Of a stretch of 64,000 bases of DNA, positions 22,774 through 53,901 are shown piece by piece (positions within the stretch are counted from its first letter, which is position 1; each line of letters opens with the position of its first letter). The position numbers were made by a program, and so were the translations under genes. Origin of the DNA: Ostreococcus lucimarinus (lineage: Eukaryota). The stretch is from NCBI GenBank assembly GCA_000092065.1, contig CP000586.1; one strand, 5' to 3'. A model generated the notes under the pieces. It did no database searches. It was not told the DNA's origin and worked only from the letters and a program-made list of their open reading frames with translations.

Positions 22774-22949
22774 TGACTCCGGTGGGGTTCGAACCCACGC
22801 CCTTTCGGACCAGAATGTTACGTTGCGATTGTTCTCGCATGGTACGAAAGCGGGCGCGCGCGCGACTCGCGTCGCGCGCGTTGTTTTTCCCGTAGTTCCT
22901 CCTCGTGTTCTCCTTAATCTGGCGCCTTAGACCACTCGGCCACAGAGTC
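22774..22949 (-). tRNA. tRNA-Leu (anticodon AAG), class II, with a ~96-nt intron at the canonical 37/38 position
   Basis: Reverse complement reads GACTCTG TG GCC GAGTGGTCTAA GGC G CCAGA TTAAGG [intron] T TCTGG TCCGAAAGGGC GTGGG TTCGAAC CCCAC CGGAGTC A. Acceptor and anticodon stems pair (with G-U wobbles); U33 and G37 present; T-loop GTTCGAA. Exons are 22949..22912 and 22815..22774. Confidence 0.75.
22816..22911 (-). other. tRNA intron (~96 nt) containing a perfect 10-bp GC hairpin with a GCGA tetraloop
   Basis: The sequence between anticodon-loop nt 37 and 38 contains CGCGCGCGAC-GCGA-GTCGCGCGCG. Confidence 0.6.
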
Positions 22950-30721: not shown

Positions 30722-30947
30722 TCGGTTCCGACGCGCTCGACCGCGCGTCATCGTCTGCGTCTTCGTCGTCGCTCGTCCACGTCTTCGCGCGCGCTGAACC
30801 GTCGACACGACGACGGACGGCAGCGGCATCGCGTTCATCGATCGCGTCGCGCGCGTCGTACGCGAACGCCTCGAACGGCGGATTCATGCGTCGTCGTGTG
30901 CGACGCGACGCGAATCGAATTTGAAATCGCGTCTGAGAGTCGGACAT
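26907..30947 (-). CDS. CHD: CHD-type chromodomain-helicase-DNA-binding chromatin remodeler (CHD1-like)
   Basis: Tandem chromodomains (EFCVKWEGVSHRRCSWE; EYLVKWCGLGYAAATWE). SNF2 ATPase (ILGDEMGLGKT, DEAHKLKN) with helicase C domain. Poly-D tracts. Track ORF extends to 31367 across the promoter; the start is taken as ATG 30947 (MSDSQTRF), with ATG 30887 (MNPPFE) as an alternative. Confidence 0.85.
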
Positions 30948-30954
30948 TCGGCGC

Positions 30955-30980
30955 GTGTACAAACGTATGTACAAACAGTG
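30955..30980 (-). promoter_or_regulatory. Promoter motif CACTGTTTGTACATACGTTTGTACAC (minus strand), ~8 nt upstream of the CHD ATG, inside a GTAC-core cluster
   Basis: The reverse complement of 30955-30980 matches the recurring motif. Five GTAC cores lie between 30955 and 31030. Confidence 0.5.
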
Positions 30981-31110
30981 AAGACATATATACCACGAAT
31001 GTACACCAGTGTACGTATTGTGTGTACACGCACGCCCATATCGCGCGCGCGCGCGAACCGTCGTTTCGCGCGCGTCGACGTCGCGAGGCGACGGCACTCG
31101 CCGTCGCGCG

Positions 31111-42565: not shown

Positions 42566-45118
42566 TCAGAGGAACTTTTTGACGACGCGCTTGGACTCGT
42601 CGACGACGGACTCGAGGTCATCCTTGAGGTTGGCGTCCGAGGTGCCGTAGCGTTGGAACGAGTAAACCAACACGCCGGCGCCGAGAAGCTCTAACAATCG
42701 CGGCGCCGCGATGGCGACGAGCGGCCAGCGGGCGACGTTGCCGAGCACGTACGTGCCCGCGAGGGCGGTGGCCGGGCCCGCGATGTCGACCACGGGGTTT
42801 TCGCTGTCACCGAACCATTCCGGGACCTCCTTGAGCGTGTCGGTCACTTCGGAAATGTCGACGTCTTGCACCGCAGACACCGTCTTGGAGGCGGTCTTAC
42901 CGATCGGGGCCAGTTGATCGATGACTTCGCCGACATCGCCTGGCAACTCGCGCGGCAAGTTGGCGGCGAGATCTTCGATGTCGTCCGCGATATCGTCTTC
43001 GCCGACGAGGAGGTAACGCTCCAAGAGCAAGACGGCGGTCAGGGTGCCGATGAATTCGAGCGGACCCGGCACGAGCGAGCCGAGAACGGGCAAGTGCGCG
43101 ACGGCGTCGGTAGCCACGACAGCACCGACGGTGGCAGCCTTTACGTTAAAGTTGTCGATACCATCAATCGTCTCGAAAACTCCATCCGCCGCACCTTCAA
43201 GGTCGCCCTCGAGGAGCGAATCTCTGACGCCCGGCACGGCCAACGCGAGCGCGACGGCGGTGGCCAAGCTTACGGCGGCGACGTCACTGAACGTGGCGCC
43301 GACGAAGTCAAGGCTCTTGCTGCTGTTGTTGCGCGCAGTGGCGTCCGCGCGCGCCTTCGCAGTCTTGGCCTTGACTTCTTTAGCCTTCTTGTCCGCGAGA
43401 GCCTTCTTCTTCGCGGCGGCGGCAGCCTTGGCGTCAACCTTCTTCGCGGCGGGCTTGGAAGCGGCGGGCTTGGAAGCTGCGGGCTTCGGCGCGGCGGGCT
43501 TCGGCGCGGCGGCTTCAACCTTCGGCACGGCGGCTTCGACGGCCTTCTCTGCGGCGGCAACTTCTCTTTCCGCGGCTTGCTCGGCGCGAAGCGCTTCGCG
43601 TTCCGCGGCTTGCGCCTTGGCGGCGGCGGCGCGAGTGGCCTTGTCGTTGGTCATCGCCGCTTCCATCTTCGCCTTGGCGGCGGCTCGGGCGGCAACTTTT
43701 TCGGTAGCGGCGGCCTTAGCGGCGTTCGCTCTGGCAGCTTGCGCAGCCTTTCTGGCGGCCACTTGCTTATCGGCGCTCGACGTCGCTGCGCTGACGCGCT
43801 TTCTGCTCGATTCCGATTTCTCCGCGATGAGCTTCGCTCGCGCGTCGGCGGCAGCCTTGCGTTCGGCTTGCTTTTTAGCCGCAAGCTTGGAGGCCGCAGC
43901 AGCCTTCTCAGCTTGCTTGATGGCGCCCGGGGTCTTCTTCGGCGCTTGGATGACCGGAGCTTGAACAACCGGAGCTTCGACGACGGGTTCGACGACGACG
44001 GGCTTCTCCGCCTTTACCGGCGCCTTCTTCGCAAGACGCGCCTTCTTCGCGGCTTCAAGCTTGGCCGCGTTCGCAGCCTTAGCTTTGGCGGCAGCTTCTG
44101 CGCGTTCGGTGGCAGCCTTTTGCGCGGCGGCGGCAGCCTTCTCCGCTTCCGCGTCGCGCGCCGCCTTGATCTTGGCCAATTCCGCTTCGCGAGCCTCCTT
44201 GGCGGCTTCGCGCTTCGCCGCGGATGGCTTATCCGCGGACTTCGTCGGCATTTCCGCGACGGCAGGCGCTTCAGCCACCGGCGCGGTGGCCTTGGAAGCG
44301 ACACGCTTGACCGGACGCTTCGTCGTCGGCGCTGCCGTGGCTGCCGGCGCTGGCGCAGCCTTAGACGCCACGCGCTTCACCGGACGCTTCGTCGGCGGCG
44401 CCGCCACACCCTTCACGGTGCGCTTAGACACGACGCGCTTCACCGGACGCTTCGTCGTCGCCGCCGCCACACCCTTCACGGTGCGCTTAGACACGACGCG
44501 CTTCACCGGACGCTTCGTCGTCGCCGCCGCCTTGACCGCGGGCGCGGTCTTAGACGCCACGCGCTTCACCGCGCGCTTCGTCGTCGGCGTCGCCTTACCG
44601 GGCGCCGCCTTCGACGCGACGCGCTTCACCGGACGCTTCGTCGCCGGCACCGCCGTCGCCGTCGCCTTGGTCGCCGTTCGCGCGCGCACCTTCCTCACGC
44701 CCTTTCGCGCCCCCCCGCTCGTCGTTTTCGCCTTAAATTCCTTCTTCCCCGCCTTGACCTTCGGCGCGACGCGCGACGCCGTCGACTTCGCCGTCGTCGT
44801 CGTCGCTCGCCGCTTCGTCGTCCGTTCGTACGGCGTCCCTCTCCCGTTCACCGTCGACGCTCGCTTCGCCTCGTACGCCTCCGCGACGTCCGTCATCCCC
44901 ACGATCGCGCTCACCGCCACCGCCGTCGCCGCCATCGCCGTCGACCGTCGCTTCGCGTCGTCGTCGTCGTCGCTTCGCGCGTCGCCGTCGTCGCGTCGCG
45001 TCGTCGCGCGTCGCGCGATCGTCGCCTTCCCGCGTCGCGCATCGCGCGTCGCGCGTCGCGTCGTCGCGTCGCGTCGCCGCGCGGGCGCGCTCGGGATCGT
45101 CGCCGCCGCGAGGGACAT
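42566..45118 (-). CDS. Basic-repeat protein with a C-terminal CAAD/CURT1-like membrane domain
   Basis: Presequence-like N-terminus. Eight or more tandem ~20-aa repeats (TTKRPVKRVASK...). ~300 aa A/K/E-rich coiled region. C-terminus WPLVAIAAPRLLELLGAGVLVYSFQRYG resembles the CURT1/CAAD motif PLLPKVMELVGLGYTGWFVYRYLLF. Confidence 0.6.
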   Translation of the reverse strand: MSLAAATIPSAPARRRDATTRRATRDARRGKATIARRATTRRDDGDARSDDDDDAKRRSTAMAATAVAVSAIVGMTDVAEAYEAKRASTVNGRGTPYERTTKRRATTTTAKSTASRVAPKVKAGKKEFKAKTTSGGARKGVRKVRARTATKATATAVPATKRPVKRVASKAAPGKATPTTKRAVKRVASKTAPAVKAAATTKRPVKRVVSKRTVKGVAAATTKRPVKRVVSKRTVKGVAAPPTKRPVKRVASKAAPAPAATAAPTTKRPVKRVASKATAPVAEAPAVAEMPTKSADKPSAAKREAAKEAREAELAKIKAARDAEAEKAAAAAQKAATERAEAAAKAKAANAAKLEAAKKARLAKKAPVKAEKPVVVEPVVEAPVVQAPVIQAPKKTPGAIKQAEKAAAASKLAAKKQAERKAAADARAKLIAEKSESSRKRVSAATSSADKQVAARKAAQAARANAAKAAATEKVAARAAAKAKMEAAMTNDKATRAAAAKAQAAEREALRAEQAAEREVAAAEKAVEAAVPKVEAAAPKPAAPKPAASKPAASKPAAKKVDAKAAAAAKKKALADKKAKEVKAKTAKARADATARNNSSKSLDFVGATFSDVAAVSLATAVALALAVPGVRDSLLEGDLEGAADGVFETIDGIDNFNVKAATVGAVVATDAVAHLPVLGSLVPGPLEFIGTLTAVLLLERYLLVGEDDIADDIEDLAANLPRELPGDVGEVIDQLAPIGKTASKTVSAVQDVDISEVTDTLKEVPEWFGDSENPVVDIAGPATALAGTYVLGNVARWPLVAIAAPRLLELLGAGVLVYSFQRYGTSDANLKDDLESVVDESKRVVKKFL

Positions 45119-45209
45119 GTCGTTCGCGAGCCGTGCGCGCGCGCGTGTGCGCGCGCGATCGCCGCGGCGTCGCGAATCGAATCGGATAATCGTCCAAATC
45201 TCTAGTTTT

Positions 45210-45374
45210 CACTGTTTACGCATACGTAACGTATTCTGCGTACGTTTACGCTATGAATGACGCTTGACGTGGTCGTATGTACTGTTTACGCATACGTAAC
45301 GTATTCTGCGTACGTTAACGCTATGCATGACGCTTGACGTGGTCGTATTCTGCGTTCGCACTGTTTGCGCGTCC
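45210..45374 (+). repeat. Tandem 70-bp repeat, 2.3 copies, in the promoter of the PRP3 gene
   Basis: Units at 45211-45280 and 45281-45350 are ~94 % identical; partial third copy cgcactgtttgcgcg. Each unit carries CACTGTTTACGCATACG plus ACGT cores (TACGTAACG, TGACGCTTGACGTGG). Confidence 0.85.
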
Positions 45375-45724
45375 AACGCGTCGGTCGCCGCGCGCGGCGT
45401 CGACGACCGCGCGCGCACACCGCGACGGACCGCGACGACGGCATGCGCGCGTCGCGGTCGCGGTCGCGGTCGCGGTCGACCGATCGGTCGACGGCGCGCG
45501 CGAGCGCGCGCGACGGCGACGGCGCGCGAGGGACGGCGGCGTCGGACCGGGCGCGCGTGGACGGGATGACGGTGCGCGCGCTGCGGGACGCGCTGCGCGC
45601 GCGAGGGATGGCCACGGACGGGGTCAAGGCGACGCTGGCGGCGCGGTTGCTCGAGAGCGCGGGCGGTTCGGAGGGAGGGACGAAGCGGGCGCGGGAGGGG
45701 GGGGCGGCGCGCGACGGCGACGGC

Positions 45725-45777
<53 letters not shown>

Positions 45778-46270
45778 GGGGACGACGGCGACGCGAGCGA
45801 CGAAACGAAGGCGGTGGGAGGATGGCGACGGTGCGGAGGGGGCGGGGGAGGCGAAACCGGAGGCGGTGGTGGCGAAACCCAAGGCGGCGGGCGGTTTGGA
45901 CAAGGCGGCGCTGTTGAAGCAAAAGCAGGCGTTGTTGAAGCAGAAAGAACTCGCGGCGAAGCTCAAGGCGAAGAAGGTGGCGGACGAGAAAGCGAAGGCG
46001 GCTGCGGGGTCGCGTCCGAGCGCGCGTCCGATGGCGCTGCGACTCGACGCGCAAGGTCGAGAGATTGACGAACGCGGCGAATTGGTGGTGAACAAGGTTA
46101 TCGAGACGTCGACGCTGAGCGTGAATTTGAAGCAGCAACGCGCGAACGCTTTCGCGCAGGCGCAGGCGGAAGCGCAAGCGGAGATCGCGAGTCAGGCCGG
46201 GGCGGATTTTGACGATCCCAGAATGCGGGCTTTCGCGGGAAAGACTCGGAAAAAGCGTTCGGCTTTACAG
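45365..46270 (+). CDS. PRP3: PRP3-like U4/U6 snRNP protein, exon 1 (SAP-motif N-terminus)
   Basis: SAP motif MTVRALRDALRARGMATDGVKATLAARLLE followed by K/A-rich region. Exon ends at CAG|GTGCGT. Start is ATG 45365, or ATG ~45566 at MTVRAL. Confidence 0.65.
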
Positions 46271-46679
46271 GTGCGTTTGAATCGACGCGATTTCCAACCG
46301 CCTCGTGATTTTTTCTTCGTCATTGCATCTTTCAAAGCTCCGTGGTAATCTCACGACATGCCCCTTGGAGACTACAAGATTGCAAAATTGAAAGGCTGGC
46401 GCTCTAATACTCCTCTGAGGTTTCCACTCAGGAGGGTTACGCTGCGTCGGTACATTTTCCACGAAAGCAAGTTACACTCTGTCGCGAGACCTTCTCATGT
46501 CACGTTGCAATTTTTATGCTTGCGATAGTAAATAGCGGATTGGACAGCTGGCGGGGCGCTCTTATCATAGTGGGCGTCATCTCCTTACCATCCGAACCAC
46601 ATTTTTTTGGTTTCGACGAGAAACGTTTTTCTCGGCTTTTCGCCGACTGACCTCGTTTTGCGCGCGTTTTCGTTTGCAG
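46271..46679 (+). other. Spliceosomal intron 1 of PRP3 (GT...AG, 409 nt), markedly lower GC
   Basis: Donor CAG|GTGCGT. Polypyrimidine tract plus TTTGCAG| acceptor. The reading frame of exon 2 (phase 0) matches. Confidence 0.7.
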
Positions 46680-47484
46680 TTCGTCGAGGACGGTAAGTTT
46701 CAGAAAGAAGCCGACATGCACAGGCTTCGCATGCAATTCGGCGACGAAAAGGCGGAAAGGATGAAGGAGCGATCTGAGCGCGAGCGCAAACACGCCGAAC
46801 GCATGGAAAAGTTGGAAAAGGAGGCGACGATGGATCCCAACTTGGTTCCGGTAGGCGAGCGCCCTTCGGCGGCGAAGGGTGCGAGCGCGGCGAGGCCGTT
46901 AGCGCCTTTGGATGAAATACCCGACGTCGAATGGTGGGACCGGGATATTTTGCGTAACGGGACGTACGACGACGTCACGGGTGGAAAATGGAACGTGAAT
47001 ATGGACAAGTTTAACGTGTACGTCGAGCACCCCGTGCCGATCAAACCGCCTCTGAACGCGCCTGCGCCGGCGCCGCAACCTCTGATGCTCACTAAAGCGG
47101 AGCAGAAGAAACTGCGCACGCAGCGTCGCGTCGCACGAGAAAAGGAAAAGCAAGAGATGATCAGGCAAGGGTTGATTGAGCCCCCGAAACCAAAGGTGAA
47201 AATCTCCAATTTGATGCGCGTGTTGAAGGACGAAGCCGTGCTCGATCCCACAGCTATGGAGAAGGAAGTGCGAGAGCAGATGGCTGAGCGCGAGCAAGCT
47301 CACCAAGATAGAAATTTAGCGCGCATGCTCACGCCGGCGGAACGACGTGAGAAGAAGATGCGCAAGTTGCTAGGGAACGATGCGGCGGGCGAGGTACACA
47401 TGCACGTGTACCGCGTCGAAGACATGTCCAACACAAAGAATAAGTTCAAGGTTGACGTGAACGCGCAAGAGAATCACTTGACGG
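46680..47484 (+). CDS. PRP3: PRP3 exon 2
   Basis: Translation FVEDGKFQKEADMHRLRMQFGDEKAERMKE...TPAERREKKMRKLLG...HLTG collinear with PRP3/DUF1115. Exon ends at ACGG|GTACGT. Confidence 0.7.
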
Positions 47485-47692
47485 GTACGTTTCACGTTCG
47501 TAACTTCACTCGACATCGATATTTCGTCTTTGATGAATTCGCGAAACCATTACTAGTACTGAAAGCCTCAGAGCCTCCGGGCTTTGATCGAGACAAACGC
47601 TATCCCTGAGACGCTCTGTTGTGAGAACGCTGACGACGTCGCGGGGCCGCGCGCGACTGATGACTGACCAGAAGAAATTCGATCACACGCAG
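47485..47692 (+). other. Spliceosomal intron 2 of PRP3 (GTACGT...CAG, ~208 nt)
   Basis: Canonical donor and acceptor. Splicing restores homology to the human PRPF3 C-terminus (...VVVEGG..RLMLHRIKWDE...NKCVLVWEG...). Confidence 0.65.
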
Positions 47693-49693: not shown

Positions 49694-50053
49694 CGCGCCT
49701 CCGTCGCGCGTCCGTCCGAGCGCGCGCTCGCGTCGCGCTCGCGTCGCGCGCGACCGTCGCTCGCGTCACGCGTCGTCGCGCGGTCGCGCGCGTTCGCGTT
49801 CGCGCGTCGCGCGCGCCGATCGACGCGCCTCGCGCGAGAATAAAATTACGACGCGTCTCGAGACGCGCGCGCGTCCGGGTCGCGCGCGCGCCGCGCGGGC
49901 GCTCGAGTCGACGCGCTCTCTCTCGCGCGCGCCGTTCGCGGTCGCGCGCGCGCGCGCGGTCGCGTGTGCGGCCGACGCGCGCGAGGGCACGGGCCAACGA
50001 ACGGCGTTGCGTCGAGGACGGCTCGTGACTGTTTACCCATACAAAAAGAGTGA

Positions 50054-53884: not shown

Positions 53885-53901
53885 CACTGTTTACCCATAC
53901 G
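53885..53901 (+). promoter_or_regulatory. Promoter motif CACTGTTTACCCATACG, 32 nt upstream of the LepA ATG
   Basis: One of five oriented copies; the others are at 50028-50042, 45210-45226/45281-45296, 30955-30980 (minus) and 61666-61681. Confidence 0.5.

Follow-up and report, generated by a model that had tools for sequence, protein, structure and literature searches.

What is a near-perfect 70-bp tandem repeat that stands in front of a PRP3 gene in Ostreococcus lucimarinus, does it belong to a promoter, and which gene would that promoter serve? Ostreococcus is one of the smallest free-living eukaryotes, and the O. lucimarinus genome is compact, with 13 Mb. Mamiellales picoalgae are ecologically dominant and are used as minimal models of the plant lineage, and to our knowledge their promoter architecture is poorly described. 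We have analysed the repeat within a 64,000-nucleotide stretch of contig CP000586.1 (assembly GCA_000092065.1), which we call the window. The original prediction had taken the repeat for a 2.3-copy array that forms the PRP3 promoter and carries a recurring motif together with clustered plant-like bZIP sites. The reading that we prefer, and hold to be rather probable, is that of a young, species-specific minisatellite (VNTR), which would have arisen by tandem duplication of the 70-bp core of a bidirectional promoter, whose motif would bind a protein and whose copy number would tune the flanking genes.

The array and its gene context

In the window, TRF delimits a tandem array at 45211–45348 with a period of 70, 2.0 copies, 97% matches, 0 indels and a score of 262. 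It lies among the following features, which are taken from ORFs and gene calls and, for the units, from TRF, register and composition:

45119–45442, no strand: divergent (head-to-head) intergenic region of 324 bp that contains the array
45211–45280, plus strand: repeat unit 1, 70 bp, 44% GC, 9 CpG, 4 ACGT cores
45281–45350, plus strand: repeat unit 2, which keeps the register of unit 1 up to 45348, with 66 of 68 positions identical
45344–45370, plus strand: scrambled remnant, CGTATTCTGCGTTCG, a copy of unit positions 20–34 joined at a shared CGTAT, then ACTGTTTGCGC
42566–45118, minus strand: 850-aa gene, stop at 42566 and ATG at 45118 facing the array, no Pfam domain
45443–46348, plus strand: first coding block of PRP3, with a SAP domain; start at 45443 (first in-frame ATG) or at 45566 (coding-score call)
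46674–47609, plus strand: second coding block of PRP3, with PRP3 and Prp3_C domains

The units are arranged head-to-tail and fall into the range of about 10–100 bp, the size class of minisatellites as defined in PMC3887541. They differ at four positions (37, 46, 69 and 70), about as many as had been noted, and both contain the three sub-motifs that the original prediction had named, i.e., ACTGTTTACGCATACG, TACGTAACGTA and TGACGCTTGACGTGG. Two copies thus stand, and the additional 0.3 copy in register does not. What follows unit 2 is not a truncated third copy but a 15-nt copy of unit positions 20–34 at 45344–45358 (14 of 15 identical, with none of 500 shuffles as good), and the degenerate motif start ACTGTTTGCGC at 45360 is found 79 nt, not 70, past the start of unit 2. 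Within the unit, a 35-bp sub-periodicity is weak and consists of a shared GTTTACGC only (8 of 500 shuffles were as good).

With 44% GC, the unit departs from the window mean of about 62%. The window contains 8 strong tandem arrays, and the 70-bp array is the only one among them that combines high identity with lower GC, as the other 7 are GC-rich and of low complexity; its description as a lower-GC repeat outside the microsatellites was hence apt.

The array occupies the centre of the 324-bp divergent region. From here it is 92 nt to the ATG of the minus-strand 850-aa gene and 73–95 nt to the PRP3 ATG that comes first in frame; with a PRP3 start at 45566, the latter distance grows to about 200 nt. 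Because the minus-strand ATG is at 45118, the array lies in a divergent intergenic region and not, as had been thought, by the 3' end of the minus-strand gene; the stop codon at 42566 is 2.6 kb away. The N-terminus of the 850-aa protein aligns with the start of its orthologue in another Ostreococcus lineage, and its C-terminal 250 aa share 64–70% identity with other Ostreococcus lineages. Judged by its position, the array would be promoter-region DNA of the divergent pair of 850-aa gene and PRP3. Its designation as the PRP3 promoter is correct insofar as a gene with SAP, PRP3 and Prp3_C domains follows downstream; however, the region is bidirectional, and the placement of the motif described below points at least as much to the 850-aa gene.

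Both flanking genes contain repeats of their own. In the 850-aa gene, a coding 63-bp repeat with reiterated ...TTKRPVKRVASK... segments extends over window positions 44291–44654 (5.7 copies, 81% matches). The called length of this gene varies among contigs, e.g., 791 versus 849–852 aa, and further calls of 644–926 aa look like gene-calling differences. In-frame length differences between haplotypes were seen in a short CGT run of the 850-aa gene (44791–44803) and in the (GCGACG)n microsatellite at 45711–45793, which encodes a Gly/Asp run in the first PRP3 block.

Copy number and unit variants in wild haplotypes

The window's SnRK1-type kinase is encoded on contigs in 909 collection blocks, many of which are marine metagenome samples, and the neighbouring DUF3593 protein falls into the same 90% cluster as XP_001418539.1 of O. 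lucimarinus CCE9901. From various samples and assemblers we compared, together with the window, 24 independent metagenome contigs that span or reach the intergenic region. In the genes adjoining the array, these contigs are 99.6–99.9% identical to the window. The number of units is distributed as follows:

1 copy: 1 contig (L290, an indel-rich long-read contig)
2 copies: 14 contigs and the window
3 copies: 6 contigs (L002, L003, L005, L006, L280 and L292)
at least 3 copies, contig ending inside the array: 2 contigs (L285 and L286)
100-N scaffold gap in the array: 1 contig (L008)

The comparison of related strains that the original prediction had proposed hence finds 1, 2 and at least 3 copies among 24 contigs and the window, i.e., copy number differs within one species, where part of the diversity and some of the copy-number calls stem from short-read assemblies that may mis-join near-identical units or mix strains. 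The common 3-copy allele is not a collapse or expansion artefact, because several samples yielded it in separate assemblies with different assemblers and its middle unit carries private variants. No allele without any unit was seen among the 24 contigs.

Variant units are interspersed and reshuffled. We distinguished 19 unit types among 38 units, a few of which come from suspect contig ends, and the same type can recur at different positions of the array. The resulting unit maps are mosaic (3-4-2, 4-2, 5-4-2, 5-3, 5-5 and 6-6), as expected from unequal exchange or slippage. Counted over twelve haplotypes with 2 copies, variable columns amount to 15 per 100 nt in the array versus 2.2 and 3.3 in the intergenic flanks, so that variable sites are about 5–7 times as frequent in the array; two other intergenic regions of these contigs are almost invariant. 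Within the 38 units, variation is distributed unevenly. Unit positions 1–28 and 51–66 are nearly invariant, and two further features can be set apart:

45239–45260, plus strand: hypervariable part of the unit (positions 29, 37, 40, 43, 46 and 48–50), including the first TGACG
45261–45276, plus strand (unit positions 51–66), and again 45331–45346: near-invariant block CGCTTGACGTGGTCGT, which holds a GACGTG core

In one contig with at least three units, L285, T>G and A>C changes are present in all three units. We rejected concerted evolution as their origin and take them to be probably sequencing or assembly errors; L285 was discounted because its adjacent gene is 99.9% identical, with all differences at the contig end and towards G/C. 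Many short-read contigs of the population (L280–L287) end in the array or a few hundred bases off it, and the 70-bp array seems to act as a metagenome assembly breakpoint.

Absence of the array from other Ostreococcus lineages

Starting from DUF3593 orthologues with 67–76% identity, we located the corresponding syntenic region in four other lineages of Ostreococcus (L010, L011/L012, L013 and L014). The order of kinase, PRP3, large gene and DUF3593 gene is conserved in all of them, and the DUF3593 gene is about 75% identical to the window at the DNA level. An AT-richer island is present in their intergenic regions between PRP3 and the large gene; these four regions contain neither a 70-bp repeat nor any recognisable similarity to the unit. 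As four other lineages are without the repeat, the array must be young and specific to the O. lucimarinus lineage. The 16-nt motif with which the unit begins was also not found within 4 mismatches in the 17–21 kb examined per locus (about 80 kb) of these four lineages, from which it follows that the motif is not universally required.

A recurring 16-nt element at the start of each unit

The first 16 nt of the unit are a recurring element with the consensus ACTGTTTACSCATACR, which occurs in the window at these sites:

45211–45226, plus strand: copy 1, ACTGTTTACGCATACG, 92 nt to the minus-strand ATG
45281–45296, plus strand: copy 2
50028–50043, plus strand: ACTGTTTACCCATACA, in the divergent region between SnRK1-type kinase and malic enzyme, invariant in 10 haplotypes
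53886–53901, plus strand: ACTGTTTACCCATACG, flanked in a short divergent region by an Ssl2009_C-domain gene and a LepA-type GTPase, without variation in 10 haplotypes
30964–30979, minus strand: weaker element ACTGTTTGTACATACG with 3 mismatches, in the divergent region 30888–31110

With up to 3 mismatches, ACTGTTTACGCATACG has 5 matches in the window versus 0.11 expected, and the motif can rightly be called recurring. All four independent sites fall into divergent intergenic regions, of which the window has 13 with a total of 3,286 nt (5.1%). The underlying gene map was produced with a home-made codon log-odds caller trained on five window genes. A naive map of longest ORFs had been dropped, as it misclassified many motif matches as genic in the GC-rich DNA.

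Scanning metagenome contigs for ACTGTTTACSCATAC yielded at least 120 loci. Their GC content has its mode near 0.6 (52 of 120 among the matches listed), against a mode near 0.4 for the chance matches in viral contigs that served as a baseline. The flanks of the GC-rich matches are unrelated; all they share is that an R follows the 15-mer and that A is avoided in front of it. Among the matches listed, 38 GC-rich ones could be classified; divergent intergenic regions, with 7% of the bases, account for 18 of them, and genes, with 80% of the bases, for 12; some of the genic matches are evidently bacterial, L099, which was counted as divergent, looked bacterial as well (CstA-like membrane protein), and a few other GC-rich matches are probably bacterial. 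Each unit of the array starts with an element that elsewhere occurs mainly in intergenic regions that contain promoters. In 69 kb of extra, unascertained sequence around three motif loci, we found three further near-matches, all within or beside intergenic DNA: the first sits in a divergent region, the second straddles a called gene's 3' end, and the third falls barely inside the 5' end of another gene call.

The genes adjoining the motif are functionally unrelated and encode, for example, Wee1, an RSH enzyme, SMC1, a JmjC/TYW5-like protein and a histidine-kinase rhodopsin. One of the metagenome motif loci clusters with O. lucimarinus CCE9901. As motif loci have GC contents of 0.57–0.65, the motif may occur in more than one genome. 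Its density in the window, about one site per 20 kb, extrapolates to several hundred sites per genome. In an orthologous pair with 84% identity, L038 and L095 from two lineages, the motif is conserved, as is, almost perfectly, a stretch of about 70 nt on its downstream side (…CATCAAAGAAGCGCTCCACGAAGATGTAGTTTTTAAT…), and the adjacent 50 nt of intergenic sequence have diverged. This downstream stretch could be a conserved UTR, the end of a short gene or a non-coding element.

For the orientation of the motif, we compared its distances to the two adjacent start codons. In 11 of 17 divergent cases, among them the bacterial-looking L099, the gene on the 5' side of the motif is 50–135 nt off, versus 4 of 17 on the other side. 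In 18 cases, a promoter-side gene was callable on one side only, and 14 of these genes stood on the 5' side (p = 0.03). A paired comparison of the two sides, however, was not significant (10 of 17, Wilcoxon p = 0.19), and site 50028 breaks the rule with 334 and 254 nt to its two ATGs. A rule of orientation and distance is thus suggestive only. If it is applied to the array, copy 1 with its distance of 92 nt would serve the minus-strand 850-aa gene.

When the literature was searched in full text with the motif on either strand, only unrelated papers came up, apparently through chance strings such as primers, and a search on promoter motifs of Micromonas or Ostreococcus returned nothing relevant. 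We tentatively propose, as a possibility that is somewhat less likely than not, that ACTGTTTACSCATACR is a previously undescribed, abundant putative promoter element of O. lucimarinus and some relatives. It might bind a general regulatory or core-promoter factor and, read as GTATGSGTAAACAGT, would sit 50–135 nt upstream of the starts of unrelated genes, and the array would then be a natural allelic series of this element.

Some motif loci have additional features. In L067 (3541–3583), the 16-nt element is itself part of a tandem duplication, two copies of ACTGTTTACGCATACGTCCTTTATTCTG with a period of 28 bp, and here too the region is intergenic and divergent. At 11 otherwise unrelated GC-rich loci (L027, L031, L037, L056, L074, L088, L091, L097, L102, L116 and L128), the motif lies inside common segments of 50–150 bp; here, GACTGACACTTTC often occurs 3–25 nt downstream of the motif and CCGCCTCCCYGAT sometimes upstream. 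These shared segments look like a family of short dispersed elements in an organism related to that of the window. Another companion of the 16-nt element, GGTCGGACATTCGG, is located about 12 nt from the 16-nt element in L047, L057 and L065, and it is also present in the window at 30938–30979, in the other orientation, beside the weak motif copy at 30964.

Alternative explanations for the array

Our reading has one main rival, a neutral copy number. AT-richer, weakly constrained intergenic DNA would then have given rise, through slippage or unequal exchange, to a minisatellite whose copy number drifts with no measurable consequence for either gene, and the additional copies of the motif would be passengers. 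This explanation, which we regard as somewhat unlikely, would account for the hypervariability of the array relative to its flanks, for the coexistence of copy-number alleles in an otherwise 99.6–99.9% identical population and for the frequent breaks of contigs at the array, and other lineages manage without the repeat. High diversity inside the array would fit a neutrally evolving minisatellite equally well. Neutrality is less easily reconciled with the uneven distribution of changes over the 38 units, most of which fall between positions 29 and 50 and spare positions 1–28 and 51–66. Moreover, the first of these near-invariant blocks is the motif that elsewhere has a strong promoter association, and an allele from which the unit had been lost was not seen in the sample.

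The original prediction had likened the clustered cores to plant as-1 and G-box sites, and the array could accordingly be imagined as a bZIP-responsive PRP3 enhancer with paired TGACG/ACGT cores. We consider this improbable. ACGT cores are indeed clustered, as had been noted, with 8 in the 140-bp array versus one per 156 bp window-wide, i.e., four per unit where the density of the whole window predicts 0.45. Units hardly vary in their GACGTG hybrid core, and the nearly invariant TTGACGTGG block in which it lies may well be a binding site. However, the 64-kb window contains TGACG 264 times and ACGT 411 times, and at such frequencies in this genome neither core is informative by itself. Outside the repeat, TGACGT and GACGTG show no preference for intergenic DNA (4 of 60 and 3 of 71, respectively, versus an intergenic fraction of 12.9%). 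No CACGTG G-box occurs in any intergenic region of the window, hence also not in the array. The two TGACG pentamers at 45258–45262 and 45265–45269 start 7 nt apart and leave a gap of 2 nt, where 3 bp had been given, and only the second one includes an ACGT core. In as-1 elements, the TGACG centres are about 12 bp apart, and the pentamers of the array are thus not arranged like as-1. The first TGACG is furthermore polymorphic in the population, with ATGCGC instead of TGACGC in many natural units, and the nearest start codon is that of the other gene and not of PRP3.

We also considered a fragment of a mobile or dispersed element that was inserted into the intergenic region and then duplicated. 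Such an origin could be suspected from the 50–150-bp motif segments that are common to L031, L037, L056, L074, L102, L116 and L128, several of them with GACTGACACTTTC, and from a second group of segments in L047, L057 and L065 with CGGACATTCGG. In addition, an imperfect 30-nt inverted repeat with 80% complementarity (45145–45174 and 45391–45420) brackets the AT-richer island of the window. However, this inverted repeat is GC-rich low-complexity sequence and one of 60 such pairs in 800 nt, and the flanks of the island show no convincing terminal inverted repeats and no evident target-site duplication, so that the hallmarks of a transposable element are missing. When the unit was compared by sensitive BLAST with the window and about 280 fetched loci, only its first 15–19 nt recurred and no full-length copy turned up elsewhere, and most motif matches have unrelated flanks. 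In viral contigs, an exact 18-mer from the middle of the unit, CATACGTAACGTATTCTG, had no match, and scans with three parts of the unit gave chance or phage-like matches, or none. Within the window and the loci searched, the unit is, as far as these comparisons indicate, a local duplication, which answers for this scope the search for other copies that the original prediction had called for, and an insertion is very improbable.

A structured RNA gene, for which palindromic pieces such as TACGTAACGTA might speak, or an assembly artefact, as assemblers can create or collapse repeats, can practically be dismissed, given that the single-strand DNA fold of the array is no better than that of shuffles (z = −0.67), that the array region matches no Rfam family at the gathering threshold and nothing credible at permissive thresholds (the sole match with E = 1e-6, ilvB-OMG, reaches 30 bits versus a gathering score of 96) and that the array was assembled independently in more than 20 samples. 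Elsewhere in the window, the only Rfam match at the gathering threshold is a tRNA at 22774–22949 on the minus strand; it spans 176 nt versus a model of 71 positions, which suggests a tRNA gene that contains an intron.

Comparison with known repeats and promoter elements

Variable repeats in promoters are known from human genes, i.e., MAOA-uVNTR and INS-VNTR. Like promoter VNTRs, the O. lucimarinus array is composed of head-to-tail units of 10–100 bp, lies in presumed promoter DNA near a start codon and has a copy number that is polymorphic within the species. Most promoter repeats of yeast are short and AT-rich, and they work through nucleosome exclusion. In contrast, the O. lucimarinus unit is long (70 bp) and of complex sequence, contains a specific 16-nt motif and is placed between a head-to-head gene pair. 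Promoter tandem repeats of yeast were found to change both gene expression and the positions of nucleosomes when their repeat number changes (Vinces et al. 2009, as cited in PMC3887541).

In its layout, with two tandem copies of about 70 bp that contain several short motifs upstream of a promoter, the array also resembles the SV40 72-bp repeats and the 75-bp repeats of retroviral LTRs. The copy number of duplicated viral enhancers varies between isolates, as does that of the array. The array, however, is a cellular green-algal locus without sequence similarity to the viral enhancers. With classical minisatellites, it shares unit size, interspersed variants, gain or loss of whole units (3-4-2 versus 4-2) and hypervariability compared with the flanks. 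It differs from them in its very low copy number (1 to at least 3), its intergenic, presumably promoter location and the lack of a G-rich core.

The 16-nt element, in turn, may be compared with the yeast sites of Rap1, Reb1 and Abf1, i.e., long motifs of 13–16 nt that are found over many unrelated promoters at a preferred distance. The sub-string ACCCATACA, which is present only in the C variant of the motif, matches the Rap1 UASrpg core, a resemblance that need not reflect homology or function.

Proposed mechanism and implications

In our preferred reading, a 70-bp piece of a bidirectional promoter core would have been tandemly duplicated in an O. lucimarinus-type genome, and unequal exchange or slippage would reshuffle unit variants and shift copy number. 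The 16-nt element would be a protein-binding promoter element that, read as GTATGSGTAAACAGT, usually sits 50–135 nt upstream of the start codon it serves, here probably that of the minus-strand 850-aa gene. The duplication would reiterate this element together with the second conserved block CGCTTGACGTGGTCGT. Copy number could then set both dose and spacing of binding sites and, as a result, the transcription of one or both flanking genes. An effect of the array on expression is plausible on these grounds.

The array is genuine, but as a promoter minisatellite it is fairly ordinary and belongs to a familiar class of features, and the 16-nt motif is the most interesting by-product of its analysis. 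If copy number were without effect, the array would be one more neutral minisatellite. In either case, it offers a cheap strain-level marker, as it provides length steps of 70 bp in a population that is more than 99.6% identical. Should the 16-nt element prove to be a true promoter element, it would give a handle for finding its binding factor, and it could help to annotate transcription units and to design compact synthetic promoters for Ostreococcus. And if our reading of the motif is true, the array would be a ready-made experiment in which the dose of one element can be set against the activity of two divergent genes.
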